Shown here: piece by piece, positions 6,627 through 40,824 of the stretch
Layout: each line of letters opens with the position of its first letter
How positions within the stretch are numbered: the stretch's first letter is position 1
Assembly: GCA_947165685.1 (NCBI GenBank)
Contig: CAMVBK010000009.1
Coordinates: forward strand, 2,524 to 66,523
Length of the DNA stretch: 64,000 nucleotides
Direction: 5' to 3'
Source of the DNA: an uncultured Bacteroidales bacterium
GTDB lineage: Bacteria; Bacteroidota; Bacteroidia; Bacteroidales; WCHB1-69
Notes under the pieces: generated by a model
Told to the model about the DNA's origin: nothing
Seen by the model: only the letters and a program-made list of their open reading frames with translations
Database searches by the model: none
Program-made: the position numbers and the translations under genes

Positions 6627-6826
6627 GGTTGGTGGGTTTGGTGGGTTAGTGGGTTAGTGGGTTAGTGGTTTAGAAGTTTAGTAGTTTAGAAGTTTAGAAG
6701 TTTAGTGGTTTAATGGTTATTAGTCACTTGTCACTTGTCATTAGTCACTTGTCACTTGTCATTAGTCATTAGTCATTAGTCACTTGTCATTAGTCATTAG
6801 TCACTCGTCACTCGTCGTAGCCTTAA
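6627..6826. repeat. Composite 8-mer then 7-mer tandem array, about 200 nt
   Basis: (GGGTTAGT)x3, a GTTTAGNN 8-mer series (about 6 units), then TCACTTG/TCATTAG/TCACTCG heptamers (about 14 units). It fills almost the whole kdsA-TPR intergenic region. Confidence 0.95.
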
Positions 6827-6829
6827 CCC

Positions 6830-24025: not shown

Positions 24026-24105
24026 GTTTCGTTATATTTATTCCTTGAAAGCCCTGAAAGGGCGTCCTATGTCAGCCCAGGGTGAGCGTTAGCGAGCCCT
24101 GGGGC

Positions 24106-25849: not shown

Positions 25850-27181
25850 ATGATGAACACGTCCAAAGACATCGAGTTTGCCTCCCCGGAGGCGATCAAA
25901 GCTTTCCAGGAGGAGAAACTTCACGACGCGCTGGTCTATCTGCAGCGCCATTCGCGTTACTATCAGCGCATGTTTGACCGCTATGACATCAAGGTGGAGA
26001 AGATCCGCTGCATTGAGGACCTGGTCAACATCCCGTTCACCGAAAAGAAGGACCTTCAGCTCTTCAACGAGGACTTCCTTTGCGTGCCCAAGGAGAAGGT
26101 GATCGACTATATCACCACCAGCGGCACGCTGAGCGACCCGGTGACCTTCTGTTGCACGGAGAAGGACCTGCGGCGGCTGGCCTTCAATGAGAAGAAGAGC
26201 TTCGAGTGCGCCGGGCTGCGTCCGGGCAACATCCTGCAGCTGATGGTTACCCTCGACAAGCGCTTCATGGCGGGCCTGGCCTACTTCCTTGGCCTGCGGG
26301 AACTCGGCGCATCAGTCATTCGGGTCGGCAACGGCATCCCCGAACTGCAGTGGGACACCATCCGCCGCATCCGTCCCGACAGCATCATGTGCGTGCCGTC
26401 GTTCATCCCGCGTCTCATCCAATATGCCGAAGACCACGGCATCGACTACCGGAACTCCAGCATCCGGAAAATCATCGGGATAGGGGAGAGCCTGCGCAAC
26501 CAGGACTTCTCGCTCAACCTCCTCGGCGAGCAGATCAAGTCGAAATGGGATGTGGAGTTGTATGCTACCTATTCCTCCACTGAGATGGGCGCGACGTTCA
26601 GCGAGTGCGCGTACGGCGTGGGCGGCCATGTGCATCCCGAACTCATCATCGTGGAAATCATCGGTGAGGACAACCTGCCGGTGCCCGATGGGGAGACCGG
26701 CGAGGTGGTGGTGACGACCCTCGGCGTGGAGGGTATGCCGTTGCTGCGCTTCCGCACGGGCGATATGTGCGCGAAAATCACCGAGCAGTGCCCCTGCGGG
26801 CGGAACAGCTACCGGCTCACCCCTTTGGTTGGACGTAAGAACAATATGATCAAGTTGAAGGGTACCACGCTCTACCCGCCGGCCTTGATGGACGTGCTCA
26901 ACAACACCCCCTTCGTGCAGAACTATGTCATCTACGTGCAGGACTCCCAGCAAGGCACCGACGAGGTGGTGGTGAAGGTGGGGTTGAACGCCGAGGCGGT
27001 GGAGGGCAATGTCCGTTTCAAGAGCCATCCCGAGGAGATTGTCAACGAGCTGAAGAACCGCTTCCGTGCGCACGTGCGCGTCGCGCCCTCGGTGGTGGTC
27101 GCCCCCGTGGAGGAGGTGCAGCGCATCAACTTCCCGCCCAGTGCCCGAAAACCGGTTAAGTTCGTGGATCTGAGGGGGTGA
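25850..27181 (+). CDS. Phenylacetate--CoA ligase family (PaaK/F390-synthetase-like) adenylate-forming enzyme
   Basis: 443 aa. The N-terminal pattern (..Q.EKL...V.Y....S.YY...F......I....DL..IPFT.K.DL), TSGT and YSSTE motifs, and an ACT-like C-terminus (VVV.V..) fit the family. Confidence 0.75.
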   Translation: MMNTSKDIEFASPEAIKAFQEEKLHDALVYLQRHSRYYQRMFDRYDIKVEKIRCIEDLVNIPFTEKKDLQLFNEDFLCVPKEKVIDYITTSGTLSDPVTFCCTEKDLRRLAFNEKKSFECAGLRPGNILQLMVTLDKRFMAGLAYFLGLRELGASVIRVGNGIPELQWDTIRRIRPDSIMCVPSFIPRLIQYAEDHGIDYRNSSIRKIIGIGESLRNQDFSLNLLGEQIKSKWDVELYATYSSTEMGATFSECAYGVGGHVHPELIIVEIIGEDNLPVPDGETGEVVVTTLGVEGMPLLRFRTGDMCAKITEQCPCGRNSYRLTPLVGRKNNMIKLKGTTLYPPALMDVLNNTPFVQNYVIYVQDSQQGTDEVVVKVGLNAEAVEGNVRFKSHPEEIVNELKNRFRAHVRVAPSVVVAPVEEVQRINFPPSARKPVKFVDLRG

Positions 27182-28154
27182 TGTTTTCCCCGCCAAGGGG
27201 TAGCGTCTCTCCCATCGACAGTGTCTTTTCTTCCGTCAGACCTGTGATTTCCTCGACAATAGAAGGGGGAATTCCTTTGTCGAGCATGTCGCGGGCAAGT
27301 TTCCGCCTCTCTTCGCTCCGTCCTTTTTGCATCCCTTCTTCACGCCCTTGCAGCAAACCTTGCTGCAGCCCTTGTTGTAGCCCTTGTTGCAGCCCTTCCT
27401 CGCGTCCTTGCTGCAAACCTTTTTGCAGCCCCTCGTCCCGGCCGATGCCCTTCCAGGTGGCCTCCACGCTGACGCCGTCCCAGTATCTGTCGTAGAGGTA
27501 CTCCTCCGCCTCGTCGTAGTTGATGACCTCCAGCAGTTTGACGGCCTTGGCGATGTCGGGGTCGGCGAGGAGTTCCGGCGCGGGTGTCCTCGTCTTGGCG
27601 GTCATCTCCGTGAAGTAGCGCATCCACAGGTCCTTCTTGGAGTCGCCCTTCACGGCCAGCTTCTTGTACTTTTCGATTTCGGCGAAGACGATCTTGAGCC
27701 CGTCGAAGACGCGGTCGGTGTGGTAGATGTGGACGAACTGGTAGGGGTGGTACCATTCGCTGAGCCCCTTGTGCAGGTCTCCGGTGACGAAGTTGAGGGA
27801 ATAGACGGGCTTCAGGAGTTTGTAGCGTTCCCCCTCGTTGAGCTGGCGGACGTAGGCTTTTGAGGCGTTGAAGAAGACGCGCTTGAAGAAGTCGGACTCC
27901 CAGTTGAGCTGCATCTCGACGAGGAAGGTCGCGCCGGCGGAGTCGGTGCAGTGCAGGTCGACGATGCTGTCCTTGCGGGTTGGAGTGTTGGGCATCAGTT
28001 CGGGCGGGAGGTAGCGCAGGTCGGTGATGGTGCGGCCCTCCTCCAAGGGGAGGAAGGCGTTGAGCAGGCTGGCGGCGAGGTCGATGTGCTCGCCGAAGAC
28101 CTTCCGGAAGGTGACGTCGGTCACGGGGCTGAAGTATTTGCAGTAGTTCTTCAT
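27156..28154 (-). CDS. Rpn-family recombination-promoting nuclease / putative transposase (PD-(D/E)XK, YhgA-like)
   Basis: N-terminal KYFSPVTDVTFRKVFGE. Core ..IVDLHCTD..G..FLVEMQ. C-terminal Q/G-rich pentapeptide repeats (GLQKGLQQGREEGLQQGLQQGLQQGLLQGREEGMQKG), then an HTH-like tail. The ATG at 28154 is preferred because the longer form would include the promoter box. Confidence 0.7.
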   Translation of the reverse strand: MKNYCKYFSPVTDVTFRKVFGEHIDLAASLLNAFLPLEEGRTITDLRYLPPELMPNTPTRKDSIVDLHCTDSAGATFLVEMQLNWESDFFKRVFFNASKAYVRQLNEGERYKLLKPVYSLNFVTGDLHKGLSEWYHPYQFVHIYHTDRVFDGLKIVFAEIEKYKKLAVKGDSKKDLWMRYFTEMTAKTRTPAPELLADPDIAKAVKLLEVINYDEAEEYLYDRYWDGVSVEATWKGIGRDEGLQKGLQQGREEGLQQGLQQGLQQGLLQGREEGMQKGRSEERRKLARDMLDKGIPPSIVEEITGLTEEKTLSMGETLPLGGENITPSDPRT

Positions 28155-28173
28155 GACGACAAGTTTTAGGTTG

Positions 28174-28181
28174 CAAAGATA
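28174..28181 (-). promoter_or_regulatory. -7 promoter box (TAtcTTTG) for the Rpn-family gene
   Basis: The plus strand reads CAAAGATA, 20 nt upstream of the ATG at 28154. Confidence 0.5.
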
Positions 28182-28332
28182 CAACGGAAAAACGCTGTTG
28201 TCAAGGGTTTTGCGAAATTTTTCTGTTGTCTGTTAATCAGACTGTTGCAATGTTTGATTTAACAATTCGATTCGGAATTGTAAATTTTTGAGCGCGGGTT
28301 TCGCAGGATTTTAAGGCTGTTCGACGAAATCC

Positions 28333-30924
28333 TTAGTCTGCTAACCCTCTCACCTTGAATGTCGGTTCCTCGTCTAACAGCGGGAACATGACCCGGACTT
28401 CCACCTCTTCGTTCGGCTTCAGGTCAAAGTAGTTGTCGAAAATGATGACAGGGTAGCCGTGGGTCTCCTCGATGAAAACCCCTTTTTGCAACGTTTTGGC
28501 AGACAGTCGGATGGTGGCGTTGTGGTTGCCGTAGATGATCTTGGTTTGCAGGTCCCCTCGGTTGAGTTTTAACATCTTGGGCTTCGCAAAATAGGTCAAG
28601 TATTGCAACTTTTCGCCTTTTTTGGGGGTGAAGAAGGCTTCCACATACACCTCGCCTGCGTTTTTGACCGATTTCGGCCGGGAAATGGTGACGGCTTTGA
28701 TGCTGCTGCCGGCGGTTGCGCTCACGTTTACCGCGGCCGAATCAACCAACGTGCCGTCCATCTTGCGGATGGCCCAGACCAGCTCGCCCGCGACGGTCTC
28801 GAAAGCGTCGTTGATGACGTACAGTTCGATGGAGTCCTGCGAGAGGCGCCTTGAAGCGATGGCGACGTTGGCGTAGAGGCTCGGTAGCGCGTAGTACAGT
28901 GCCTTCGGATGCCCGGCCACGTCGATGCAGCTCCAGGAGGCTACGGGCCAGCAGTCGTTGAGCTGCCAGAGGAGCGTGCCGCTGCACTTGTCGTGCTGGA
29001 TGCGGTGTGCCTCGATGGCCTGCGCGATGCCGTCGCGCTGCACCAGCTGACTGATATAGACGAATTTTTCGAGATTGTTGGTGTCTTTGTAGCCGTAGAG
29101 GTCCTCCATCGCTTTCAGGATGATGGGTACCCCGCGGCCATGCTTCTGGTGGTTGCGCATAGACGGGGAGCGAAGATCGCGTTCGCCTTCAGGGATGAAA
29201 GCGTTCCAGAGGGCCATCTCCGGGTAGGCCTGGAAGCCGTACTCGGTCATGAAGCGGCCGGTCTTCTCCCACCATATCTCGAAGGGCAGCTCACCCCACC
29301 AGACCCCCCAGTAGTGGCTGCAGCCGTGGGTGGTGCACTCAGGATGCCCCCAGCCGTAGGTCGGCGAGGAGTGCACGTAGTTGGGCTTGTGCATATTTTC
29401 TGTGCAGACTCTCGGCAACAGCTTTTCGAAAAGTTGCTCGTAATCCTGGTACATCTTGGCGTATTGCTGGTCGGTATAGCCTAACGCATCTTTCCAGCCC
29501 CAGTCTTCCAAGCCGTTGTGCACCTCGTTGTTGCCGCACCATGTGGCAAGGCAGGCGTGATGGCGCAGCCGTTTTACCTGCTCCGTCGCCTCCGCCTCCA
29601 CATTGTCCATGAAGGCTTTGTCGCCCGGGTAGATGTTGCAGGCGAACATGAAGTCTTGCCACACGAGGATGCCCAGGTAGTCGCAGAGCTCGTAGAAATC
29701 ATCATGCTCGTACAGACCGCCGCCCCAAACCCGCAACATGTTCATGTTTGCGTCTTTGGCCTGCCGAATCAACTCGTCGTAGCGTTCGTATCCCTCGCTG
29801 CGGGCGAGCGTGCCCGGGTACGAAGAAGCCGGAATCCAGTCGGCACCGCGCATGAAAAGCGGGCGGCCGTTGACGATGAACTGGAACGATTCGCCGATGC
29901 TGTCTCGCTTCTGGACGAGCTCCACTGTACGCAGCCCGTGGGTGTGCATGATGTCGTTGTCAACACGGCTATCCTTGACCGTAAAGTAATAGAGGTGGGG
30001 TTCGCCTGCGCCGTTCGGCCACCACAACTTGGGATTCTCGATGGTCACGGGGATAACCACTTTGTTGTTGCCCTTGTGCAGTCTCGCCTTGTACTGGATT
30101 TCCTGACTGTAGTCATCCTTGTCGGTGATAGTCAGCAAAAGATTGGTGGTCAGCTTTTTCTCTGCTTGGATTTCCACTTCCACCTCTGAAATCCAGGGTC
30201 TGTTCGCATCGAGAGAGGGCTCAGTGTCTTTGACATAGAAGTCGTTGATTTTCATATCGTTCCAAGACTCGATATAGACATCCTTCCAGATGCCGCAGGT
30301 GTTGAGCTTCGGCCCCCAGTCCCAACCGCTCTCGTACTGCGCCTTGCGGGTGAAGACGCGGTTGTCGGGGAGCTTGTACGGCAGCTTCGATGCCGCAATG
30401 CTGTCGAACGGGGCGGAGGGCAAGAAACGGACGCGAAGTTCGTTCCCCACTTCGTCCAGTTTTTCGGGCATCGGAAAGCGCCAGGTGCGGAACATGTTAT
30501 TGGTCAGCGAATCTCCGGTCGTTGCCACCAAGCGTGTTCCGTTGATATAGACTTCCGCGTAAGTGTCCAATCCTTCAAATACTAACTCGTTGTGCGCGAA
30601 TGTTTTGCCATGGCCGCAGCTTTTGTCGAAGTGGACGACGTATTCCCACACGCTGTCGGACACCCATTGCACTTTCGATTCGTTGTCGCCGTAGAACGGG
30701 TCGGGAATCAGCTTGTTGGCAAGCAGGTCGTCGTGGATGTTGCCCGGCACGGTAGCAGGATGTTCGTTGAATATCTCGCCTTGAAGGCGGACTTTCCACT
30801 CGTTGTTTAGGCATCCGTGCTGCGAATTGAGATAACGGCGCTCGTAGCCGGTGCGGGTGTTGGTGTGGCAACCGGCGAGAAGGACGACGGCGAGGACGAG
30901 GATGGGGATATGCGCTTTTTTCAT
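28333..30924 (-). CDS. Beta-mannosidase, glycoside hydrolase family 2
   Basis: 863 aa with a lipoprotein signal (LLAGC). N-terminal W......A.VPGNIHDDLLANKLIPDPFYGDNE. Catalytic region NEVHNG / MTEYG. Confidence 0.85.
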   Translation of the reverse strand: MKKAHIPILVLAVVLLAGCHTNTRTGYERRYLNSQHGCLNNEWKVRLQGEIFNEHPATVPGNIHDDLLANKLIPDPFYGDNESKVQWVSDSVWEYVVHFDKSCGHGKTFAHNELVFEGLDTYAEVYINGTRLVATTGDSLTNNMFRTWRFPMPEKLDEVGNELRVRFLPSAPFDSIAASKLPYKLPDNRVFTRKAQYESGWDWGPKLNTCGIWKDVYIESWNDMKINDFYVKDTEPSLDANRPWISEVEVEIQAEKKLTTNLLLTITDKDDYSQEIQYKARLHKGNNKVVIPVTIENPKLWWPNGAGEPHLYYFTVKDSRVDNDIMHTHGLRTVELVQKRDSIGESFQFIVNGRPLFMRGADWIPASSYPGTLARSEGYERYDELIRQAKDANMNMLRVWGGGLYEHDDFYELCDYLGILVWQDFMFACNIYPGDKAFMDNVEAEATEQVKRLRHHACLATWCGNNEVHNGLEDWGWKDALGYTDQQYAKMYQDYEQLFEKLLPRVCTENMHKPNYVHSSPTYGWGHPECTTHGCSHYWGVWWGELPFEIWWEKTGRFMTEYGFQAYPEMALWNAFIPEGERDLRSPSMRNHQKHGRGVPIILKAMEDLYGYKDTNNLEKFVYISQLVQRDGIAQAIEAHRIQHDKCSGTLLWQLNDCWPVASWSCIDVAGHPKALYYALPSLYANVAIASRRLSQDSIELYVINDAFETVAGELVWAIRKMDGTLVDSAAVNVSATAGSSIKAVTISRPKSVKNAGEVYVEAFFTPKKGEKLQYLTYFAKPKMLKLNRGDLQTKIIYGNHNATIRLSAKTLQKGVFIEETHGYPVIIFDNYFDLKPNEEVEVRVMFPLLDEEPTFKVRGLAD

Positions 30925-30994: not shown

Positions 30995-32080
30995 TCAGAC
31001 AATCACCTTCACCCTGAACCCCAGTTTCGTGGGCTCTTCGATAATCTCGCGCGAGAGGTCGCGGATTTCGTCTATCGTGTGCGGGTCGCAGCCGTCTGCC
31101 CGCAAGGGGGAGGTTGCCAGGTCTTTAACCATGAAATCCAAGGACACGAGCTCGTGCTGTTCGCTGTAGGAGATGCGCACCGTCAGGGGGCGGTAGTGTG
31201 CCATGACGGACAGTACCATCTTGTCGGTGATTTGCCGTATATTGTCGATTTTCTCGGCGAAGTTGTATTTTTGGCAGAAACGCATCATTTGCGCGTGCAT
31301 TTCCATCATGTCGAATGCGGGGCCCTGGATCTCGAACAGCTGCTTGTAGATGCGCTGCACGAAAGCTTTGGTGGCGCTGTGGACAGGGTGCTCGAAAATT
31401 TGTTCCGGCGTGCCGTCCTCGTGGATGCCCCCGTCGTACATGAAGAAGATGCGGGAACAGACATCGTGGGCGAACTTGAGCTTGTGGGTGACGATAAGCA
31501 TGGTCATTCCTTCTTTCGCTAACTGTCGGATGACGCTCATCACCTCGCCGACCATGGAGGGGTCGAGGGCGGAGAGCGGTTCGTCGAAGAGCATCACCTC
31601 GGGCTGCATGACTAACGAGCGGGCGATGGCGACGCGCTGCCGCTGGCCGCCGGCCAGGTCGGAAGGCATGGCATTGCACCGGTCGTCAAGCCCCACCTTG
31701 TGGAGCATGGCCATCGCCTCCTTTTCCGCCTCCGAACGGCTTAGCCCTTTCAGCTTCATAGGCGCAAGGGTGAGGTTCTCCAGCACATTGAGATGGTCGA
31801 ACAAGTTGAAGGACTGGAACACCATACCCATGCGCTGCCGCAACCTGTTGATCGGGTAGCCCTTTGACAGGATGTTTTGGTTCTCAAAATAGATTTCGCC
31901 TGCCGTGGGGGGCGTCATCAGGTTGAGGGTTTGCAGGAAAGTGCTCTTGCCCGTTCCGGAAGGACCGATGATGCCGATCACTTCACCCCGGTGGATTTCA
32001 CAGTTGACATCCTTCAGCACCTCGTGGAGGCTGCCGTCGGGGTGTATGAATATTTTGGAAAGGTGTTTGACCGTGATCAT
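30995..32080 (-). CDS. Amino-acid ABC transporter ATP-binding protein with an extra C-terminal domain of about 115 aa
   Basis: Starts MITVKHLSKIF. Walker A GPSGTGKST, signature LAGGQRQRVAIAR, Walker B MLFDEPLSALD. The ATG at 32080 overlaps the upstream stop (ATGA). The listed 564-aa ORF is an artefactual 5' extension. Confidence 0.85.
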   Translation of the reverse strand: MITVKHLSKIFIHPDGSLHEVLKDVNCEIHRGEVIGIIGPSGTGKSTFLQTLNLMTPPTAGEIYFENQNILSKGYPINRLRQRMGMVFQSFNLFDHLNVLENLTLAPMKLKGLSRSEAEKEAMAMLHKVGLDDRCNAMPSDLAGGQRQRVAIARSLVMQPEVMLFDEPLSALDPSMVGEVMSVIRQLAKEGMTMLIVTHKLKFAHDVCSRIFFMYDGGIHEDGTPEQIFEHPVHSATKAFVQRIYKQLFEIQGPAFDMMEMHAQMMRFCQKYNFAEKIDNIRQITDKMVLSVMAHYRPLTVRISYSEQHELVSLDFMVKDLATSPLRADGCDPHTIDEIRDLSREIIEEPTKLGFRVKVIV

Positions 32081-33549
32081 ATTGTTGTGGCTATTTTGAA
32101 AAGAAAGTCGAGGAGTTTGCCCATCAGCCAGGCCAGGATGAAATAGATGATGGTGATGAGAAACAGCGGGAAGACGGCCTCGAAGGTGCGTGCGCGAATC
32201 ATGTCGCATGCGCGGGTGAGGTCCTGGATGGCCAAATACCCGACCACCGAGGTGTTCTTGATGAGCGACACGGCCTCGCTCTTGTACTGCGGGCGGATGT
32301 CCTTCAAGGCTTGCGGACCGGTGATGTAGCGGAGAATCTGCGCCGGGGTGAACCCGAGCGCCAGTCCCGCTTTGTAGGTGTTTTCGCCGATGGCCGTGAT
32401 GGCGTTGTCCATCATGTTGGCGAATGTGGATGCGAACGTCATGGAGAAGGCCACCACTGCCACTGCCACGCTGTTGACGCCCACCAGCACGATGTAGAAG
32501 AGGATCATCAGCAACACTACCAGAGGAATGCCTTTGAGAATGCTGGAATACATTTTGGCCGTCGTGATCATCCATTTGCGGTGGCTTCTCCGCATGGCTA
32601 ACAGGCCTATGCCGAGCATGCTGCCGAAGAGCAGCGAGAGCAGGGTGATTTCGATCGTCACCCAAAGTCCCTTCGCCAAAAACAGCCACCGGTTCTCCAC
32701 CAGCAAGTTGCTGTTGACCGAGCCTTTGATGTCTGACATGCCGGGAACACTTCTCTCTTTCTCCGCCGACTTGTCCACGATGAAATAGGCGCCGTAGCCG
32801 TAGTAGTAGGTGTCGGTGAGGGCGAGTAACCGTTGCCGCTCCTGCGTGGCGAAAAGCATGCCGCCGGCGATGTCGATGCTTCCGGACTGGAGTGCGGGCA
32901 CCAGCGCGGAGAAGTCGAAGAGCCGGTATTCGACCGGGCGGCCGATGTACTCGCCGAAGCGGTTCAGGATTTCGATTTCAAATCCGTACCAGTCGTGGCC
33001 GATCATATAGGAGATGGGGGCGGTGGTGTAGTAGGTGCCCACCACGATTGGCTCGCCAGGCAAAGAGTCGCTGGTTTCGGGCATGGGGACCTTCGCGTAG
33101 TCGATGGCCTCCATCCATTTGCCCGTGATCTCAAGCAGCTCTCCGGAGGCTTTCAGCTTTGAAAGGAATTCGTTGAACTTGTTCACCAAATCTATGTTCG
33201 ACTTGGCGCAGGCGAAGGCGCACGGGTAACTCTTCTCGGTGCGGAAGGCAATCTTGATTCCGTTCTTGCGGAGCAGCGAGTCGGAAAGGCTCACTTCGTC
33301 ATACAGGATGGCGTCGATGCGGCCTTTGTGGAGCGAGGCGATCAGGTCGGGCAGGGTGGGCTGGCGCACGATCCGGAAGTAGCTGTTGCCGGCCATGTCG
33401 ATTTCAAAGCTGGAGCCCGTCAGCGTGCCCACCACCTTGCCGTTCAGGTCTTCAATCGTGGTGATTTCTTTGTCGGCGGGTTGTTGTTCTTCCTGCTTCC
33501 CGCACGCGACGAAGCAGAGGACGATAAAGAGGAGTAGTAGTTTTCTCAT
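32077..33549 (-). CDS. GlnP-like fusion of two substrate-binding domains and an amino-acid ABC permease
   Basis: 490 aa. Lipoprotein signal (FVAC), two periplasmic-binding-protein type 3 (PBP3)-like segments (..GKVVGTLTGS.., ..DIAGGMLFATQERQ..), then a polar-amino-acid permease with an EAA-type loop (GLALGFTPAQILRYITGPQALK). Confidence 0.8.
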   Translation of the reverse strand: MRKLLLLFIVLCFVACGKQEEQQPADKEITTIEDLNGKVVGTLTGSSFEIDMAGNSYFRIVRQPTLPDLIASLHKGRIDAILYDEVSLSDSLLRKNGIKIAFRTEKSYPCAFACAKSNIDLVNKFNEFLSKLKASGELLEITGKWMEAIDYAKVPMPETSDSLPGEPIVVGTYYTTAPISYMIGHDWYGFEIEILNRFGEYIGRPVEYRLFDFSALVPALQSGSIDIAGGMLFATQERQRLLALTDTYYYGYGAYFIVDKSAEKERSVPGMSDIKGSVNSNLLVENRWLFLAKGLWVTIEITLLSLLFGSMLGIGLLAMRRSHRKWMITTAKMYSSILKGIPLVVLLMILFYIVLVGVNSVAVAVVAFSMTFASTFANMMDNAITAIGENTYKAGLALGFTPAQILRYITGPQALKDIRPQYKSEAVSLIKNTSVVGYLAIQDLTRACDMIRARTFEAVFPLFLITIIYFILAWLMGKLLDFLFKIATTI

Positions 33550-33564
33550 GCGGGCGGGATTGGG

Positions 33565-34146
33565 TTAACGGGATTCGTTTTCAGGGCCGAAGGTTGCCTC
33601 TAACAAGGAGAGGAACTCCTGGTAGGGGAGGGTGCCGTCCAGGTCTGCCAGCGCCACTGCGAGGTTCCGGTAGTACCAGGCCACATCCTCCATGCCGTTG
33701 GGTGCGCTGAAGCGTTGCCAAAGCCGGTCGCCGATCTGCCTGTAGTCGTGGGCGATGGCACGGAGGTTGGAGAGCTTGTCGCCGATGGCCACCACTTTGC
33801 AGTCGTAAGGGGCGGACGCGAGGAGATCGACCTGTGCCTGCCTGCGGACGCGCCACGGGGTGCCCTTGGGCAGCGGGGCGGTCTCGTGCTGCACGAGCGT
33901 GGCCACTCTTGCGCCGAAGCGTTCGCGAATCTGTTCCAGTGTCGCGTCGGTGTCCTCCACGGTGTCGTGCAGGATGGCGGCGGCCAGCATCTCGGGGTCG
34001 GAGGTGACGGTGGCCACAATGGCGGCGGCCTCCATGGGATGTATGATGTAGGGGAAGTTTTTCCCACGCCGCTCTGTGCCGCTGTGCGCGTCGGTGGCGA
34101 ACTTCACGGCCTCGTCGAAAAGTCGGGTGTCAAGGGGATTGTTCAT
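33565..34146 (-). CDS. HD-domain (p)ppGpp hydrolase-like protein (small alarmone hydrolase / Mesh1-like)
   Basis: 193 aa from the ATG at 34146. A.H.GT.R.G..FPYIIHP and AAILHDTVEDT form the RelA/SpoT hydrolase HD...ED signature. It starts 5 nt after the upstream stop. Confidence 0.75.
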   Translation of the reverse strand: MNNPLDTRLFDEAVKFATDAHSGTERRGKNFPYIIHPMEAAAIVATVTSDPEMLAAAILHDTVEDTDATLEQIRERFGARVATLVQHETAPLPKGTPWRVRRQAQVDLLASAPYDCKVVAIGDKLSNLRAIAHDYRQIGDRLWQRFSAPNGMEDVAWYYRNLAVALADLDGTLPYQEFLSLLEATFGPENESR

Positions 34147-34151
34147 GATGG

Positions 34152-35231
34152 CTAAATGAGGTTGATTTGTTTCGCTTGCCCATAGATGCGTGCCGCGCGG
34201 GATTTGTTGTAGTCGTTCTCGCCGTAGAGGGCGTTGAAAAGGAGTACCAGCCCGGCCTCGCCGAACCCCTGCTTCAGGATATAGACGATGCAGAGGTTCT
34301 GGAGCGCCACCGACTTGGCCAGGATGTCGAGCCCGGTGCCGGCCAGCTGGATGAGCGCCAGCTGGTAGGCGCTGTCGCTGTTCTCGTTGCGCATTCTGAC
34401 AATGTCGCCGATGGTCTTCATGTCCATCTCGCGGAACACGTTGTAGTAGGGCATGAGGCTGTCCTCGTAAATCTCGGCCTGGTTGATGGCCGCTATCTTG
34501 TCGGTGAGACGCTTGAAGGGGTTCACGGCAAGGAAGCTGCGGAAGGTGTCGCCGTTGAGCGGCACTTCGTCGAAGTTCCCGCTCGCCACGAGCGACTGGA
34601 CGTTGCGGCGGTAGGTGTTGATCTCCTTGCGGATATGGGTGAACTGCTCGTCCGCCAGCTCCAGCATCCCGGCCAGGCGGCTCATGCTCCGCTGGTATTC
34701 GGTTGGGATCTCGACAGCGCTTTTGTACCCCATGTCGTGGTACATGTTGGCCCAAACATGCTGCAGCGTGCTGCGCATCTGGAGCTCGAAGCGGATCTGG
34801 TTCAGCTCCGGCATGTCAGGGTCGTGGAACAGCGCCTCCGGGATGCGGCAGATGTAGTGGAGCGACATGTAGCCGAAGCGGTCGAACTCCAGCATCTTGC
34901 GCTTATCGACCGAGTTCTCCCAGTCGATCTCGAACAGCTGCTCCGCCAGCGCCGAAATGATATCGACCTCGTCGCTGAAAAAGGTGATGATGCGGACGCC
35001 GAGGATGTCGGTGATGTCGGAGAGACCGTGGTATTTGAACCCTTTCAGCTCCAGTTTCCCGATGAGGCTGTCCTCGGTTTTGATGCGTGCTTCCATGCCA
35101 GCCACGACTATCTGGTTGCTGTCGAGGCGTTTGCGCAAGCATTCCAGCACCACCGTCTTGGCGCTCTCAAAGAGCGGTAATTTTTCGTGATACTCGTCGA
35201 GTATCATCTCGCAATGCAGGTCGAGTTTCAT
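34152..35231 (-). CDS. RelA/SpoT-domain nucleotidyltransferase (small alarmone synthetase-like) with a C-terminal extension of about 150 aa
   Basis: ARIKTEDSLIGKL, DILGVRIITFF, FGYMSLHYI and FELQMRSTLQHVWANMYHD are the conserved synthetase-fold motifs. The ATG at 35231 is preferred over the listed TTG at 35261. Confidence 0.8.
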   Translation of the reverse strand: MKLDLHCEMILDEYHEKLPLFESAKTVVLECLRKRLDSNQIVVAGMEARIKTEDSLIGKLELKGFKYHGLSDITDILGVRIITFFSDEVDIISALAEQLFEIDWENSVDKRKMLEFDRFGYMSLHYICRIPEALFHDPDMPELNQIRFELQMRSTLQHVWANMYHDMGYKSAVEIPTEYQRSMSRLAGMLELADEQFTHIRKEINTYRRNVQSLVASGNFDEVPLNGDTFRSFLAVNPFKRLTDKIAAINQAEIYEDSLMPYYNVFREMDMKTIGDIVRMRNENSDSAYQLALIQLAGTGLDILAKSVALQNLCIVYILKQGFGEAGLVLLFNALYGENDYNKSRAARIYGQAKQINLI

Positions 35232-35253
35232 GAAACTTCTAATTGATGTGATG

Positions 35254-35565
35254 CTATACAATCGTGATGATGTTCGAGAACCCGGTGATGTCGAACACCT
35301 CTTTCACCTGGGGGTTCATGTTCCGCATCACCAGCTTCCCTTTGTGCGCCATGGCGCTCTTCTGCATCATCAGGAAGATGCGGAGCCCCTGCGAGGATGT
35401 GTAGGTCAGGTTCGTGCAGTCGATGTCGATGTCCAGGCCCTCCGCCTGCATGAGCGGGTTGACGGCCTCCAGGAACTGGTCGGCGTTGGAGGTGTCGATC
35501 CGTCCGTCTAACGTCACGAATGTTTTGCCATTTTCTTGGTTTATGGAGAGATTCATGTTTTCCAT
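35254..35565 (-). CDS. STAS-domain anti-sigma-factor antagonist (SpoIIAA/RsbV-like)
   Basis: 103 aa. The LTYTSSQGLR motif carries the phosphorylatable Ser. The C-terminal FDITGF pattern is also present. Confidence 0.85.
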   Translation of the reverse strand: MENMNLSINQENGKTFVTLDGRIDTSNADQFLEAVNPLMQAEGLDIDIDCTNLTYTSSQGLRIFLMMQKSAMAHKGKLVMRNMNPQVKEVFDITGFSNIITIV

Positions 35566-35592
35566 ATTTCTTGCAAGTCTTAGGTTTTGTGA

Positions 35593-36003
35593 TTATCTTT
35601 TTTGTATTTTTTTGGTCATGGTGAGCACGTTGTTGCCGTCCTCGTAGCGGTAGCGGATGCTGTCCATCATCTTTTTGCAGAGGAAGATGCCGAGTCCGCC
35701 GATATTGCGTTCTTCTGCGGGCAGAAGGGTGTCGGGGTCTTCCATCTCCAAGGGGTTGAACGGCACTCCGGCGTCGCGGAGCTCGATGGTGAGCACGAGC
35801 GTGTCCTGGTCAAGGTTGGTGCCGGCTTCAAGCCACCCGATGCCGCCGTCGTAGGCATAGCGCACCACGTTCTCCACGGCCTCCTCGATGGACAGGCGCA
35901 GTTTGAACCGCAGCTCCTCGTCATCGGGAATGTCCGGGGAAGACATCAGGAACTCAATGATCTCGCTGCTTTTGTCCTTGATAGGGTTAAAACGTTTCTT
36001 CAT
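35593..36003 (-). CDS. Anti-sigma regulatory Ser/Thr kinase (SpoIIAB/RsbW-like, GHKL ATPase)
   Basis: 136 aa. LSIEEAVENVVRYAY (N box), LRDAGVPFNP, and GGLGIFLCKKMMD (G2). Confidence 0.8.
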   Translation of the reverse strand: MKKRFNPIKDKSSEIIEFLMSSPDIPDDEELRFKLRLSIEEAVENVVRYAYDGGIGWLEAGTNLDQDTLVLTIELRDAGVPFNPLEMEDPDTLLPAEERNIGGLGIFLCKKMMDSIRYRYEDGNNVLTMTKKIQKR

Positions 36004-36024
36004 ATTTGTAACGGATTTAATGGG

Positions 36025-37908
36025 CTAAACAGTCAGGTTCAGAATGGTGATGTCGTCGTTCTGCGGGGCGCCGTCGGCGAATGCCCGCACGGTGTCGAGA
36101 AGGTTTTCGTCCGCCGTTTTCGGGTCGGTGGCGGGGCTGAGCTGCCGGCACCATTCCATCATCCGGTCGTTGCCGAAGAACTCGCCGCGGCCGTTTTCCG
36201 CCTCGGTGACGCCGTCGGTATAGGCAAAGATCCGGGTCCCGGCGTCAAAGTCGATGCTCTCCTCCACGTATGGGAAATCCGCAAACAGCCCGACGGCGAT
36301 GTTCGGCGTGGCCTTCAGGAAATAGGGCTCTCCGTTTTTGGGGATGACGACGAGAGGGTTGTGCCCGGCGTTGCAGTAGTCCAGATGTCTGGTTTTCAAA
36401 TTGATGCGGCCGACGAACAGGGTTACGAACATGTCGCGGCTGTTCGCGTCGCACACTCCGTTGTTGATGCGGGTGAGGGTTTCGTTCAGCGGGAGCCCGG
36501 TTCCGGCCACGAAGCGCAACGCGGAGCGCGTGATGGCCATCATCAGGGCTGCGGGCACGCCTTTGCCCGACACGTCGCCGATGGCGAAATAGAGCTGGTC
36601 GCCTCGCAGGGCGAAGTCGTAGAGGTCGCCCCCTACCTCTTTGGCGGGGATCAGCATGGCGTGGAACTGCGGCGGGAAGTCGGTGCGCAACATGCCCATC
36701 TGGATGTTGCGGGCCACGTTGAGCTCCGACTCCATCCGCTCGTTGGCCGCCGTGGAGGTCTTCAGCTCCTCGATGTAGGTGGCGATGGAATTCTGCATGT
36801 AGGTGAAGCTGTCGCGCAAGTGCATGAGCTCGTCATGGCTGGCAATCTCGGGCAGCTTCGTCTTGAAGTCCCCTTTTGCCATTGCGAGCGCCGCCTCCGA
36901 GAGCTCCGTGACGGGGCGGGTCATGCGCTGTATGGCTCTGCGACAAGAGAAGAAAATGACAGCGAGACCGATTAAACCGATGATAATCAGGCTAATGTGC
37001 ATTTGGCTGGAACGGCGCAGCACATCGTGGTAGGGGCAAGTGATGCTGAGCATCCATCCGTTGTGCAAGGGACCGTAAACCACAAACGATATCTCGCGGC
37101 CCTTGCCTACGCTTCGCCTCATGCTGTCCTTTTTGCTCCTAAAGTCCTCCACCAGATTCTCGAAAGAACTGCTCCCGAGGAAACTGCGTCTGTAGCGGTT
37201 GATCAGGTCGGAATCGGAACGCTTGATGCCGGCGATGTTTTTCTCGTCGAAGATGAGGGCGGTGATGGCGTTGTCGTAGGGACGAAGGCCCTCCACGGTG
37301 TTTTCAATCTGGTCGATGGCCATGTCGGCGGCCACCACGGCATAGACGCGAAGGGCGGAATCCACCAAGGGGTAGCAGTAGGTGGCGAGTTTCGAGGTTC
37401 GGGAGTCGGGAGCAGGGTGGGGGGTGGTCCAGAAAGGCGTTTTGGTTGAGGATAGTTTCTTGGTGTCCCAGAAAGTCGTGAATTTCTGAAGCTGATTGCC
37501 CGACGGGTGGAAATCGTGAATGCCGTTGTCGTCGCGGTAGCTGAAGATGGCCGGGCGGCTGTGGTCGATGCTTCCGTCGGGGCGGAGAAAGAGGATGGCG
37601 CAGCCGTTGATCAGGCGGCTGACCTCCACCGTGCGCGAGGCGATGGCCTGCAGCGCCTGGGGCTGGTCTTGCATGGCCGACATGTAGGCGGCCACCGACT
37701 GTGTGGAAATCTCCACCTCGGACAGCGGCTTCTCCAGCTCGCTGATGGTCCCGCGCAAGATGTGCTGGGCGGAACGGGTGGCCTCATCGGCGATGATTTT
37801 GTGCGAGACAATGGCCACAATCACCATAGCCGTGAAAAAAATGGCAGACACAATGCCGATAATTCGCCAACTCAGCCTGTTAGAAAAGGATTTGTTTCTC
37901 TTTGTCAT
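36025..37908 (-). CDS. Membrane sensor PP2C phosphatase (SpoIIE/RsbU-like): extracytoplasmic sensor domain, HAMP domain, then PP2C domain
   Basis: 627 aa. Two TM segments bracket about 250 aa. HAMP region (..RPVTELSEAALAMAKGDF..). PP2C motifs GGDLYDF, AIGDVSGKGVPAAL, AYTDGVTEA and DDITIL. Confidence 0.85.
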   Translation of the reverse strand: MTKRNKSFSNRLSWRIIGIVSAIFFTAMVIVAIVSHKIIADEATRSAQHILRGTISELEKPLSEVEISTQSVAAYMSAMQDQPQALQAIASRTVEVSRLINGCAILFLRPDGSIDHSRPAIFSYRDDNGIHDFHPSGNQLQKFTTFWDTKKLSSTKTPFWTTPHPAPDSRTSKLATYCYPLVDSALRVYAVVAADMAIDQIENTVEGLRPYDNAITALIFDEKNIAGIKRSDSDLINRYRRSFLGSSSFENLVEDFRSKKDSMRRSVGKGREISFVVYGPLHNGWMLSITCPYHDVLRRSSQMHISLIIIGLIGLAVIFFSCRRAIQRMTRPVTELSEAALAMAKGDFKTKLPEIASHDELMHLRDSFTYMQNSIATYIEELKTSTAANERMESELNVARNIQMGMLRTDFPPQFHAMLIPAKEVGGDLYDFALRGDQLYFAIGDVSGKGVPAALMMAITRSALRFVAGTGLPLNETLTRINNGVCDANSRDMFVTLFVGRINLKTRHLDYCNAGHNPLVVIPKNGEPYFLKATPNIAVGLFADFPYVEESIDFDAGTRIFAYTDGVTEAENGRGEFFGNDRMMEWCRQLSPATDPKTADENLLDTVRAFADGAPQNDDITILNLTV

Positions 37909-37948
37909 CTTTTGTCGTCAGCTTGATAAGCTAATAATTTGAAAGGCG

Positions 37949-37956
37949 CAAAGATA
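37949..37956 (-). promoter_or_regulatory. -7 promoter box (TAtcTTTG) for the RsbU-like gene and the operon it heads
   Basis: The plus strand reads CAAAGATA, 41 nt upstream of the ATG at 37908, inside the 90-nt gap after the upstream ABC gene. Confidence 0.5.
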
Positions 37957-37998
37957 CAAAAAATAAGGTTAGGAGAAAGCCGCGCGACAATTTTTTTG

Positions 37999-40794
37999 TC
38001 ACAGTATTAGTTTCACGCGGAAGCCTCGCTTGGTGGGCTCCTCCACCACCTGTCGGCACTGTTTGCCCAGTTCGTTTCGCTGGTTGTCAGTCAGCGGTGT
38101 AGTCTCCATTTTCTCCACCATGAAATCCAAGGCGGTGACACCTGACATTTCGCTGTGGGTGATACGCACCGTGATGGGGCGGTGGGCGGCCATCACATCG
38201 TTGAGCATCTTGTCGCAGAGCTGCCGTGCCGTCTCCTGTTTCTCAGGGATGCTGTATTTGAGGCAGAAAGCGTTGATGGCAGAGTGCATGCCGAGGAAGT
38301 CGAAGTCCGGGCCGTCGATTTCAAACACCTCCTTGCGGATGCGCTGTATGAAAGCCTTGGTGGCGCTGTGGACGGGCGACTCGAAGATCTGCGCGGGGGA
38401 TCCGTCCTCGTGAATGTAGCCGTCGTACATGAAGAAGATGCGCGTGCTCACGTCGTGGGCGAACTTCATTTCGTGGGTGACGATGAGCATGGTCATGCCT
38501 TCATCGGCCAGCTGTCGGATGACGCTGAGCACCTCGCCCACCATGGTGGGGTCAAGCGCCGAAGTGGGCTCGTCGAAGAGGATGATGTCGGGCTTCATGG
38601 CTAAGCAGCGGGCGATGGCCACACGCTGCTTCTGGCCGCCGGAGAGGCTCGTCGGATAGACATCGGCCTTCTCGGCCAGCCCTACCTTGCGCAGGAGCGC
38701 CATCCCTTCCTCCCGCGCCTTGTCCACGGGCTCGTGACGCAGCTGGCAAGGGGCAAGCATAACGTTCTCCAGCACGGTTTTATGGCTGAAGAGGTTGAAC
38801 GACTGGAAAACCATCCCCATCTTCTGGCGTAGGAGATGGATTGGATAACCTTTTGCAAGGATGTTCTCCCCATCGACCAGAATTTGTCCCGCGGTAGGGT
38901 GCTCCAACAGGTTAAGGCATCGCAATAGAGTACTTTTGCCTGTGCCCGAGGGACCGATGATGGAAATGACCTCGCCGCGATGCACATCGGCGTTGATGTC
39001 TCGCAAAACATCCAGATTCTCAAAGGTTTTCTTCAGATGGCTGATGCGTATGACGGGACTGCCGGAGGGTTGAGCGGAGGATGGGGCGGTGAGTGTTGAG
39101 GGTTGGGACATGTCGCGTTTACGGCGGACGAGGAACCATGCGCCACCACCCATTAAAAGAACAAGGATGGAGGCCACCCACGGCCATTTGCTCGTCCCTT
39201 TCCCGGTGTCGGGCGACGGTGAAGAAGGGGCGAGGATCCCCGCTTCCCCTTTGCGTGTGATAAGCAAGATGTGCGACTCGAAATATCCGTCAGAGAAGAG
39301 CACCTGCTTCTGTCGCTCCTCGGTGATGCTGATGGCTCCCATGGCCATATCGACCTTGCCCGTCTGCACGGCAGGGATTTGCGCGGCAAAGTCCATCACG
39401 AGGAACTCCAGTTTCCAGTTGCGCCTGTTGGCCCACTCTGTCAGAATATCCACTTCAATGCCGGAAGGCTTTCCTGAGCAGATGAAATTGAACGGTGGCA
39501 TGGAGGGATAAATGGCCACGCGCAGGGGCTTCCCCGTTCCGCGCTGCTTGGGTATGTCCAGTGCTGAAGGGTCGTCTGCATTGGTCCAACGGTTCAGAAT
39601 ATTCTGATAAGTTCCGTCGTCTTTGATATCGGCCAGGTAATTGTTGAAATCTTGTTGTAACTCGCTGTTTCCCAGTTGGAAACAGGTACCGACCTGAATT
39701 GGTGCCAGACCTGTGCCTACAGAGTCCACCTTTGAAGTCACTTCCTTGTTGAACGTCATTGTCAAACTTTCGAAACCGGCCACATCCACCTTGCCGTTTT
39801 CTAAGGCGGCCAACAGGTCGGCATAGGAGGCCACACGCTGTATGTCGGCATCCGGTGCCAACTCGGTGACGACCATGTCCTGTATGCTGCCGATGACGAC
39901 GCCCACTTTCTTCCCGCTGAGGGCTTTGAACACGGCTGGAACGTCCGTCCGCGCGTCTGTGGTGGAGGCTTTCTTGCTGTCCGACAGCAGAGAGGGCACA
40001 TAGCAGGCCGTTCCGCCGATCACCAGAGCCACAGCTGCTACGATGGCCTTCGTGCGCTTACGCTGCACCAGTGAGGTGAGCAGCATCCCGATGAGCCAGG
40101 CAATGATAAAATAGATGATGGCCGTCACGATGAGAGGGAAGAAGGCGTCGAAGGTGCGCGAGCGTATCAGGTCGGAGGCTCTCGTCATGTCGGCCACGGC
40201 GATGTATCCCACGATGCTGGTGCCTTTCAGCAGACTTACCACCTCGCCCTGATAGATGGGCATCACCGCCTTGACCACTTGTGGCAGCACAATCCGGAAG
40301 AACGTCTGCCGCGGCGTGTAGCCCAAAGCCAGGCCCGCCTCGGTCTGGCCTCGGTCGATGCCTTGTATGGAGGTGCGCAGCATCTCGCTGACGTAGGCCG
40401 CCAAGTTCATGGCGAAGGTGACGATGGCCACCACGATGCCCGTTGCTTTCAGCGGCGCCATCACCACGTAATACATCAGCATGAGCACAACCAGTACGGG
40501 TGTGCCGCGCATGATGTCGATATACACCTTGGCCGTGCGTTGCAGCCATTTGCGTCTGCTCATGCGCATCCAGCACACCAGGCCGCCCAGTATCGTGCCC
40601 AGGACGGTGGCGCAGAGCGTGATGATCAGCGTCACCTGTAGGCCGTCGAGAATCATCCGGTAACGCTCTTCGGCAATCAGGTTGTTGGAGAAACTCTCGA
40701 CCACGCGGTTTGTTCCGCCGGTGCAGCTGGCCAATGCCATACAGCCGCAGAGTGTCAGGATGGCGGCACACACCCGTTGAATATCCTTTCTCAT
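37999..40794 (-). CDS. Single-polypeptide amino-acid ABC importer: permease, two substrate-binding segments, a TM helix, an ATPase and a C-terminal extension
   Basis: 931-aa continuous ORF. N-terminal permease with an EAA loop (GLALGYTPRQTFFRIVLPQVVK). PBP3-like segments (..KVGVVIGS.., ..GKVDMAMGAISITEERQ..). TM helix WPWVASILVLLMGGGAWFLV. Nucleotide-binding domain (NBD) with GPSGTGKST / LSGGQKQRVAIAR / ILFDEPTSALD. The tail is homologous to the tail of the 30995..32080 protein. Confidence 0.8.
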   Translation of the reverse strand: MRKDIQRVCAAILTLCGCMALASCTGGTNRVVESFSNNLIAEERYRMILDGLQVTLIITLCATVLGTILGGLVCWMRMSRRKWLQRTAKVYIDIMRGTPVLVVLMLMYYVVMAPLKATGIVVAIVTFAMNLAAYVSEMLRTSIQGIDRGQTEAGLALGYTPRQTFFRIVLPQVVKAVMPIYQGEVVSLLKGTSIVGYIAVADMTRASDLIRSRTFDAFFPLIVTAIIYFIIAWLIGMLLTSLVQRKRTKAIVAAVALVIGGTACYVPSLLSDSKKASTTDARTDVPAVFKALSGKKVGVVIGSIQDMVVTELAPDADIQRVASYADLLAALENGKVDVAGFESLTMTFNKEVTSKVDSVGTGLAPIQVGTCFQLGNSELQQDFNNYLADIKDDGTYQNILNRWTNADDPSALDIPKQRGTGKPLRVAIYPSMPPFNFICSGKPSGIEVDILTEWANRRNWKLEFLVMDFAAQIPAVQTGKVDMAMGAISITEERQKQVLFSDGYFESHILLITRKGEAGILAPSSPSPDTGKGTSKWPWVASILVLLMGGGAWFLVRRKRDMSQPSTLTAPSSAQPSGSPVIRISHLKKTFENLDVLRDINADVHRGEVISIIGPSGTGKSTLLRCLNLLEHPTAGQILVDGENILAKGYPIHLLRQKMGMVFQSFNLFSHKTVLENVMLAPCQLRHEPVDKAREEGMALLRKVGLAEKADVYPTSLSGGQKQRVAIARCLAMKPDIILFDEPTSALDPTMVGEVLSVIRQLADEGMTMLIVTHEMKFAHDVSTRIFFMYDGYIHEDGSPAQIFESPVHSATKAFIQRIRKEVFEIDGPDFDFLGMHSAINAFCLKYSIPEKQETARQLCDKMLNDVMAAHRPITVRITHSEMSGVTALDFMVEKMETTPLTDNQRNELGKQCRQVVEEPTKRGFRVKLIL

Positions 40795-40816: not shown

Positions 40817-40824
40817 CAAAGATA
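40817..40824 (-). promoter_or_regulatory. -7 promoter box (TAtcTTTG) for the fused ABC importer gene
   Basis: The plus strand reads CAAAGATA, 23 nt upstream of the ATG at 40794. Confidence 0.5.

Follow-up and report, generated by a model that had tools for sequence, protein, structure and literature searches.

A conserved gene module of Bacteroidales in which a small alarmone synthetase is the candidate output of a partner switch

The subject of this work is a cluster of eight genes, all on the minus strand (30995-40794), in a 64,000-nucleotide stretch of contig CAMVBK010000009.1 from an uncultured Bacteroidales bacterium. That whole stretch is called the window below, and coordinates given without a locus name refer to it. 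Five of the genes encode a PP2C phosphatase, a serine kinase, a STAS protein, a small alarmone synthetase (SAS) and a small alarmone hydrolase (SAH). With a probability that we place at about 0.7, these five genes constitute a conserved module that is a partner switch with an enzyme, not a sigma factor, as its output. The genes recur together in many Bacteroidales of the rumen and gut. Neighbourhood conservation and gene fusions point to SAS as the candidate output partner of the switch. Partner-switching modules normally end in a sigma factor or another output protein, and the initial annotation of the window had proposed that the output could in this case be alarmone metabolism. This proposal gains strong support from the gene neighbourhoods of 82 related loci, and further support from fusions between components, including one of the kinase with SAS, and from the result of a control set (0/80).

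Conservation of the SAS gene neighbourhood

The scan of one genome per GTDB species yielded 80 SAS loci (51–85% identity), mostly labelled Bacteroidales, Prevotellaceae, Paludibacteraceae and Fibrobacter, to which loci from metagenome look-ups were added. Open reading frames (ORFs) were called and then searched with profiles built from the window proteins. The non-redundant set comprised 82 loci of the SAS clade, again with 51–85% identity, and switch genes were counted within 8 kb of SAS. The family to which SAS belongs is a large one, of proteins of about 360 aa, with 7302 cluster representatives at E ≤ 0.001, 1084 at E ≤ 1e-30, and more than 6000 matches among 90% clusters.

Partner-switching genes were found near SAS in 62/82 loci. 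STAS was present in all 62 of them, a kinase domain in 58/82, a PP2C domain in 47/82, and the three together in 46/82, while SAH was present in 60/82. The initial annotation had suggested surveying related genomes for the conserved order RsbU-RsbW-RsbV-SAS-SAH. The co-occurrence of the genes is indeed kept, but their order is not: 36 component orders were counted among the 82 loci, including arrangements downstream of SAS and on the opposite strand. Concerning the closest contacts, STAS was located at no more than 100 nt from SAS in 39 of the 62 loci that have it, SAH in 52 of 60, and the kinase in 5 loci. Four loci (L067, L072, L090 and L094) display STAS as the sole switch component beside SAS. 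Two of them carry rather divergent synthetases and show that the association is kept at 35–50% identity: the SAS of L090 is 35% identical, with the order SAS-SAH-STAS, and that of L094 is 50% identical, with the order STAS-SAS-LuxR. Two further distant SAS, with 42% and 34% identity, stand alone.

The control consisted of 80 distant-SAS loci on IMG/VR viral contigs (L095–L174), and in none of them was STAS, kinase, PP2C or SAH found within 6 kb. The SAS of the control are 26–43% identical, mostly over the catalytic core, none comes from the close clade, and viral contigs are not equivalent to a neutral genomic background. Distant SAS relatives are common on predicted viral contigs, and the broader family thus includes mobile, stand-alone members.

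Several observations weigh against interpreting the five genes as a conserved partner switch. In 20/82 loci, among them all the Fibrobacter-labelled ones, SAS occurs with or without SAH and no switch genes were found in the flanks, which means that SAS can work without a linked switch. About 20 loci, mostly of Prevotellaceae, have no adjacent SAH, and the hydrolase is therefore not obligatory. As to the sample itself, the loci are not phylogenetically independent, and many of the genomes are metagenome-assembled, and some labels (Firmicutes, Akkermansia) may be binning errors. The hidden Markov models (HMMs) used for the neighbours derive from the clade, and may have passed over diverged homologues among the control loci. 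Finally, the kinase::SAS fusion described below also fits an alternative in which the kinase, and not STAS, makes contact with SAS.

Gene fusions between module components

About 25 loci encode phosphatase and kinase as a single fused protein. The fusion protein of L052, with 796 aa, has the architecture MCP-like_PDC_1/dCache_1-HAMP-SpoIIE-HATPase_c_2. A kinase::SAS fusion of 521 aa, the SAS part of which is 48% identical to the window SAS over its full length, was found in three separate 90% protein clusters (P0123, P0271 and P0272) from NCBI and JGI sources. Two of the corresponding genes (L086:8001-9566 and L087:2282-3847) belong to the same assembly, GCA_024712465.1, while the third cluster comes from JGI. 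The genes of L086 and L087 are beside MFS transporter genes, and neither STAS nor PP2C was found within 8–10 kb of them, so that their surroundings add nothing to the neighbourhood evidence. A SAS::SAH fusion (P0161) and a fusion of SAH with an APH-family kinase were also recorded, the latter with about 470–480 aa in about 15 loci (e.g., L002:11092-12528, plus strand). The fusions together chain all the core components.

The fusions are relevant to the possibility that the switch acts on a sigma factor or regulator encoded elsewhere, with SAS and SAH as mere co-transcribed cargo regulated in its amount, without any gating at the protein level. It is established that classical RsbU-RsbW-RsbV modules act on sigma factors; the best NCBIfam matches of the window kinase are RsbW and SpoIIAB, below their equivalog cutoffs; and in Prevotellaceae a LuxR/GerE-type gene directly after SAS could be the real output. 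However, no sigma factor gene was seen beside the module in the loci with annotated genes, and the co-occurrence of the components survives the shuffling of their order, even in the opposite-strand arrangements of L033 and L064, where co-transcription is impossible. Moreover, the kinase::SAS fusion exists, and phosphatase::kinase fusions anchored to the membrane are poorly suited to sigma factor sequestration. In the window, as already remarked in the initial annotation, the cluster contains no sigma factor gene, inasmuch as its eight genes all have other Pfam assignments (no sigma-factor model was run). On balance, it is very unlikely that SAS and SAH are just cargo of a switch directed elsewhere.

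Phosphatase, kinase and STAS proteins of the window

The families assigned in the initial annotation to the eight proteins of the cluster were all recovered in a Pfam search, every one above its gathering score. The first protein of the switch (36025-37908, minus strand, 627 aa) is a transmembrane sensor PP2C phosphatase of RsbU/SiaA-like type, with matches to SpoIIE (161 bits, 3.8e-47), HAMP (1.9e-08) and, weakly, dCache_1. Two hydrophobic segments, at about aa 12–41 and 300–326, enclose an outside domain of about 260 aa, and the complete architecture is transmembrane segment, Cache-like outside domain, transmembrane segment, HAMP and SpoIIE/PP2C. The extracytoplasmic domain and the HAMP region anticipated for this protein are thus corroborated. 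The metal-binding Asp motifs of PP2C (GGDLYDF, IGDVSGKG, TDGVTEA and QNDDIT) are kept in 40 homologues, and a Prevotella homologue shows a clear MCP-like_PDC_1/dCache_1 domain. An amino-acid-binding motif was sought in the alignment of the Cache domain, where just a conserved WSEPYxD segment was found, the residues of the published motif not being reliably placeable.

The kinase (35593-36003, minus strand, 136 aa) is RsbW/SpoIIAB/SiaB-like and matches HATPase_c_2 with 68.7 bits (6e-19). Across 61 homologues it keeps the N-box and the G-boxes (EEAVxNVVxYAY, DxGxPF and IGGLGIFL), and serine kinase activity is predicted from them.

The STAS protein (35254-35565, minus strand, 103 aa) is a single-domain protein of the anti-sigma antagonist type. 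It matches Pfam STAS with 59.6 bits (3e-16) and NCBIfam ant_ant_sig (TIGR00377) with 72.4 bits, above the cutoff of 53.45, and it scores below the SpoIIAA equivalog cutoff. The SSQGL motif that had been pointed out as a phospho-site is present as S57-S58-Q-G-L, with both serines at least 95% conserved in 65 homologues. S58, two residues before the conserved GL, is the predicted phosphorylation site, at a position that we take to be that of the phospho-serine of SpoIIAA and RsbV.

So, the three proteins gather the sequence features of a partner switch: a PP2C phosphatase with its Asp motifs, a HATPase_c_2 kinase and a single-domain STAS protein with a Ser site. The HMMs of these proteins, run against the window ORFs, revealed no second switch module in the 64 kb.

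Alarmone synthetase and hydrolase

The SAS gene (34152-35231, minus strand) codes for 359 aa, with a RelA_SpoT match of 55.5 bits in Pfam. A RelQ/RelP-like catalytic core (aa 1–205) is followed by a family-specific C-terminal domain (aa 206–359; 34155-34616), that is, 154 aa past the core, in agreement with the extension of about 150 aa estimated initially. The protein carries the motifs Syn1 to Syn5 (RxKxxxSxxxK, DxxGxR, GYxSxH, ExQxR(T/S) and HxxYK), and an alignment of 17 sequences, going down to 29% identity, shows no variation at R49, K51, K59, D75, G78, R80, Y121, S123, H125, E149 and Q151. Synthetase activity is predicted accordingly from the sequence motifs. The sequence matches of SAS in the PDB are RelQ/RelP-type enzymes only. 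In its AlphaFold2 model (pLDDT 90), the best fold matches are SAS1 and SAS2 of B. subtilis and RelP of S. aureus, with target-normalised TM-scores of 0.77–0.84. Nevertheless, SAS is not a member of the RelQ (YjbM) equivalog, with 52 bits versus a cutoff of 320, and it has the extra C-terminal domain. Nor can it be assigned to a named subfamily from the main texts of Atkinson 2011 or Jimmy 2020.

The C-terminal domain is modelled with confidence (pLDDT 95, pTM 0.90), and a Foldseek search of the PDB gave no fold match for it, sigma-factor regions and regulatory folds included (best E = 1.2, TM-score ≤ 0.32). The idea that this domain could be specific to switch-linked SAS was discarded, as the domain is present in all 85 loci considered, with or without a switch, and also in distant homologues that stand alone. 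The initial annotation had suggested that the kinase or STAS could bind to this extension; given such a family-wide occurrence, a docking role of the domain is not supported as a general feature.

The SAH gene (33565-34146, minus strand) codes for 193 aa, the size of a single-domain protein, with a HD_4 match of 73.2 bits (2.5e-20) and an intact HD...ED motif. Its best sequence matches in the PDB are 7qoe (3.4e-27) and 7qoc, to which it aligns over the whole HD domain with the motifs HD, ED and DKLxNLR conserved. Weaker matches were obtained with the deposited Small Alarmone Hydrolase 6z3o, with MESH1 (5vxa) and with the hydrolase regions of long Rel/SpoT enzymes.

Considered by themselves, SAS and SAH could be a type IV toxin-antitoxin pair (toxSAS) similar to FaRel-ATfaRel, or an abortive-infection module, in which SAS would arrest growth via (pp)pApp or tRNA pyrophosphorylation and SAH would neutralise it, with the switch genes being either unrelated or the trigger. 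Both genes are directly adjacent in 52 of the 60 loci with SAH, sixteen loci have that pair only, and a PbcSpo-family SAH is a proven antitoxin of FaRel (PMC7229694). Also in line with a toxic role are the weak match of SAS, restricted to the catalytic core, to the PADLOC candidate PDC-S33 (3.6e-13) and the presence of distant SAS-family relatives on IMG/VR viral contigs. On the other hand, the nearest solved relatives, both by sequence and by fold, are the housekeeping enzymes RelQ and RelP, and among the fold matches the toxic CapRel comes no higher than rank 40, with a root-mean-square deviation above 15 Å. The persistence of STAS-SAS without an adjacent SAH in about 20 loci does not sit easily with an obligate antitoxin. 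No clade member with at least 50% identity was found on a viral contig, the window genes flanking the cluster are metabolic and not of defence or prophage type, and the other four module proteins had no PADLOC match. A toxSAS would furthermore leave without explanation the association with switch genes in 62/82 loci and the kinase::SAS fusion. A toxin-antitoxin pair is thus quite unlikely. A role as a defence system was rejected as well, since PADLOC gave one weak candidate match on the catalytic core and no close clade member was on viral contigs.

Amino-acid importers flanking the module

The five genes are flanked in the window by two ABC importers. Upstream, a gene of 931 codons (37999-40794, minus strand) encodes a polar amino-acid importer of unusual, single-chain construction, with Pfam matches to BPD_transp_1, SBP_bac_3 (two) and ABC_tran. 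A permease is followed by two stretches of substrate-binding domain (SBD), a transmembrane helix at about aa 538, and an ATPase with a 116-aa C-terminal extension. Downstream, an SBD-SBD-permease (32077-33549, minus strand, 490 aa; two SBP_bac_3 plus BPD_transp_1), the N-terminus of which resembles a lipoprotein signal, precedes an ABC ATPase of ArtP/GlnQ type (30995-32080, minus strand, 361 aa; ABC_tran).

In NCBIfam the 931-aa protein is GlnQ/TcyN-like and the ATPases of the cluster are GlnQ/TcyN/ArtP-like. The features of the polar amino-acid importer family (PAAT; GlnPQ/ArtPQM type) are all present, namely SBP_bac_3, BPD_transp_1 and an ArtP/GlnQ-type ATPase, with all the scores below equivalog cutoffs. 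The two importers are paralogous, as had been stated of the single-chain one lying directly upstream: the identity between the ATPases is 59%, counted over all 361 aa with the 116-aa extension included, and that between the permeases is 44%. The match of the 361-aa ATPase to ArtP of the PDB (1e-79) covers aa 16–245 only, and the extension (30995-31345 in the 361-aa ATPase) had no Pfam or PDB sequence match. Being conserved, this extension may be a regulatory domain.

The initial annotation had tied an external amino-acid or nutrient signal to alarmone signalling and to amino-acid uptake. Taken in full, such a wiring would make the importers integral to the system, with amino-acid availability sensed or transported by them feeding the switch and hence alarmone synthesis. 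In favour of this wiring, the importers flank the module in the same direction, the downstream pair begins 15 nt after SAH without a promoter box between them, both importers share the 116-aa C-terminal ATPase domain, and amino-acid permease or binding domains occur near SAS in six other loci (L006, L008, L009, L025, L049 and L073), of which L009 and L025 have no switch genes. With the window, however, these make only about 7/82 loci, namely close relatives of the window and a few others. Most of the loci have unrelated neighbours, with an ABC-2 type transporter instead in Prevotellaceae, and the upstream importer of the window has its own promoter box and is separated by a 90-nt gap. As a general feature, the link of amino-acid importers to the alarmone switch does not stand, and the importers were rejected as part of the conserved unit. 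Their integral participation is unlikely; as the neighbourhoods indicate, they are a lineage-specific local addition outside the conserved core. The downstream importer is nonetheless probably in the same transcript as the module, judging by its placement, and this would couple uptake capacity to module expression.

Organization of the locus and putative transcript

The ORF listing and the direct reading of the sequence coincide in eight consecutive minus-strand ORFs, all with an ATG start, exactly as first annotated. The intergenic gaps, from the 931-aa importer downwards, are 90, 21, 27, 22, 5, 15 and −4 nt, the last one being an ATGA overlap of the ABC ATPase start with the SBD-permease stop; the six values already given for the last seven genes were matched exactly.

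A Bacteroidetes-type −7 promoter box, TATCTTTG, occurs at 40817..40824 (minus strand), 22 nt upstream of the ATG of the fused importer at 40794. The same box occurs at 37949..37956 (minus strand), in the intergenic region 40 nt upstream of the phosphatase ATG at 37908. The latter had been taken for the only TAnnTTTG sequence in the seven-gene run, which is not correct: another match, TAGATTTG, had been overlooked at 33187..33194 (minus strand), inside the SBD-permease gene. This one is probably due to chance. The motif TAnnTTTG is only about two-fold enriched across the window, with 30 occurrences found versus 15.5 expected. The intergenic boxes at 37949 and 40817 are credible promoters because both carry the identical extended sequence GTATCTTTGC. 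The TATCTTTG variant occurs six times on the minus strand of the window (7662, 22185, 28174, 37949, 40817 and 53540); where checked, the copies are directly upstream of gene starts, and it looks like the preferred promoter form of this genome.

No minus-strand terminator-like site was found when the cluster gaps 3′ of the 37949 box were scanned. A single transcript fits the tight spacing, the one credible promoter and the lack of such sites in the gaps. From spacing and promoter placement, the co-transcription of the seven genes is plausible, and the box at 37949 is the likely start of their transcript.

An Rfam scan revealed no RNA element in the cluster; its only match in the window was an Acido-Lenti-1 sRNA at 24050-24103 (minus strand; 40.9 bits, gathering score 37). 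Beyond the ABC ATPase, 70 nt after it and on the same strand, there is a GH2 beta-mannosidase-like gene (28333-30924). Neither a TAnnTTTG box nor a terminator-like site was seen between the two, so the transcript may run past the cluster into the GH2 gene. A PD-(D/E)XK (PDDEXK_2) transposase-like gene is located at 27156-28184 (minus strand), with a Q/G-rich repeat (QQGLQQGLQQGL...) near the C-terminus of its product.

Accessory genes in related loci

Apart from the fusion to SAH, the APH-family phosphotransferase is encoded separately in 22 loci, with about 277 aa (e.g., L013:5115-5948, minus strand, and L001:7145-7978). The window has no such gene. The protein could represent a sixth component of the module. 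In six loci a YegS/DAGK-like kinase (YegS_C, 3.9e-19) is encoded between STAS and SAS (L029:7057-7965, plus strand, and L006, L008, L023, L026 and L028). L006 and L008 are the closest relatives of the window, where just 22 nt separate STAS from SAS. A gene of the tyrosine-phosphatase family Y_phosphatase3 is beside the module in seven loci (L058:7920-8735, plus strand, and L026, L028, L029, L038, L062 and L080).

Other accessory genes characterize the Prevotellaceae. In ten loci of this type, a LuxR/GerE-family protein of about 199 aa is encoded directly 3′ of SAS, in the place of SAH (e.g., L052:9111-9704 and L094:1708-2298, both plus strand), which may serve as a regulator or as an alternative output. 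In nine to ten Prevotellaceae loci, two genes are inserted between the phosphatase::kinase fusion and STAS-SAS (L052:3799-6690 and 6731-7537, plus strand). The product of the first one, with about 965 aa, is a fused ABC-2 type transporter (ABC_tran plus ABC2_membrane), and that of the second one is a lipoprotein-like protein of 268 aa without a Pfam match.

Proposed mechanism

In the mechanism that we consider the most likely one, the phosphorylation state of STAS would set the activity of SAS, and SAH would clear the product. The RsbW-like kinase would phosphorylate Ser58 of STAS, and would retain the unphosphorylated form in a complex. The binding of a ligand to the Cache-like outside domain would modify the PP2C activity through HAMP, and would thereby change the ratio of STAS to phosphorylated STAS. 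Unphosphorylated STAS would then bind SAS and switch its pyrophosphokinase activity, in the way in which SiaC acts on the cyclase SiaD. The SAH made together with SAS would degrade the product, so that the alarmone signal would be a pulse and would not be toxic. In a less likely variant, STAS would release SAS from inhibition by the kinase, which would hold SAS as an anti-sigma factor holds sigma. In this scheme we infer the binding partners, the sign of the regulation, the ligand and the nucleotide product.

STAS is favoured as the contact of SAS because it is the component most tightly linked to SAS and because in some loci it is alone beside SAS. It is also favoured as the carrier of the output because the membrane-anchored phosphatase::kinase fusion leaves STAS as the sole diffusible part. 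As the module is compact and its catalytic motifs are intact, the hypothesis lends itself to direct tests, in E. coli or on purified proteins.

Relation to known systems

The closest parallel is the SiaABCD system of Pseudomonas aeruginosa, in which the phosphorylation of SiaC depends on SiaA and SiaB; in its unphosphorylated form, SiaC binds to the diguanylate cyclase SiaD and activates it (PMC7647112, PMC8457831). The gene order of the window equals siaA-siaB-siaC-siaD, i.e., phosphatase, kinase, phospho-target and synthase of a nucleotide messenger. SiaA is likewise a HAMP-PP2C protein with two transmembrane segments and is the best NCBIfam equivalog-type match of the window phosphatase, and the output is in both cases an enzyme and not a sigma factor. 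The differences are also clear. The window enzyme is a pyrophosphokinase of RelA/SpoT fold and not a GGDEF protein, so that the messenger would be of the (p)ppGpp or (pp)pApp type and not cyclic di-GMP. Its phospho-target is a canonical STAS protein with Ser, whereas SiaC is a DUF1987 protein with Thr68. A dedicated hydrolase is co-encoded, and the phosphatase, which scores only 64.7 bits where the SiaA cutoff is 700, is not an orthologue. By this comparison, the window module appears to work like SiaABCD without being a member of it.

A second enzyme-output system of P. aeruginosa is HptB-HsbR-HsbA-HsbD. According to the summary in PMC7647112, its output is carried by the STAS protein HsbA, which promotes HsbD cyclase activity. 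HsbR fuses PP2C and a HATPase_c_2 kinase, as occurs in the loci with phosphatase::kinase fusions. Unlike it, the input of the window module is a Cache-HAMP membrane sensor, while HsbR has a receiver domain fed by a phosphorelay, and the output is SAS.

Concerning the sigma factor switches of B. subtilis, RsbU-RsbV-RsbW-SigB and SpoIIE-SpoIIAA-SpoIIAB-SigF, the same three families and the same predicted position of the STAS phospho-serine are found in the window. The latter differs by the absence of a sigma factor from the cluster, by the enzyme gene beside STAS, and by kinase and STAS proteins that remain below the RsbW, SpoIIAB and SpoIIAA equivalog cutoffs.

With respect to the enzymes, SAS shares with RelQ/RelP (SAS1 and SAS2 of B. 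subtilis, RelP of S. aureus) the fold of the core and all the synthetase motifs, and differs in being only about 21–24% identical and in the added 154-aa domain. The regulation of RelQ and RelP is transcriptional or exerted by pppGpp or RNA, and no linked switch is known to control them. FaRel-ATfaRel resembles the window in the adjacency of the SAS and SAH genes, the SAH of which could neutralise the product of SAS (PMC7229694). In contrast, the window SAS has its nearer relatives among the housekeeping SAS, many loci do without the SAH, and a mobile-element context is lacking.

The initial annotation knew of no description of such a wiring for Bacteroidota. In agreement with this, a literature search of incomplete coverage, the result of which is only absence of evidence, gave no paper joining a (small) alarmone synthetase with partner switching, anti-sigma antagonists, STAS or PP2C, and the main texts of two major surveys of RelA/SpoT homologues mention no such neighbours. 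Both the enzyme-output partner switches and the SAS and SAH enzymes are already known; it is their combination that appears to be new.

Conclusions

A broader reading, to which we would give an even chance, is that of a pathway widespread in rumen and gut Bacteroidales and in Prevotellaceae. An extracellular ligand would gate alarmone synthesis independently of the ribosome, via Cache-HAMP-PP2C and the binding of STAS to SAS, and accessory enzymes (APH-like and YegS-like kinases, tyrosine-phosphatase-like proteins, LuxR) would tune the response.

If the proposal of a partner switch with SAS as its output is true, the module would become the first demonstrated case of a partner switch that controls signalling of the (p)ppGpp or (pp)pApp type, and it would extend partner switching from sigma factors and cyclic di-GMP cyclases to alarmone enzymes. 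The switching of SAS at the protein level is known for few cases, control being by transcription, by allostery with pppGpp or RNA, or by antitoxins. In Bacteroidota, little study has been devoted to alarmone control other than by the long Rel enzymes. With a conserved input of phosphatase, kinase and STAS, these abundant inhabitants of gut and rumen would have a dedicated route, triggered by a ligand, to a stringent-like response.

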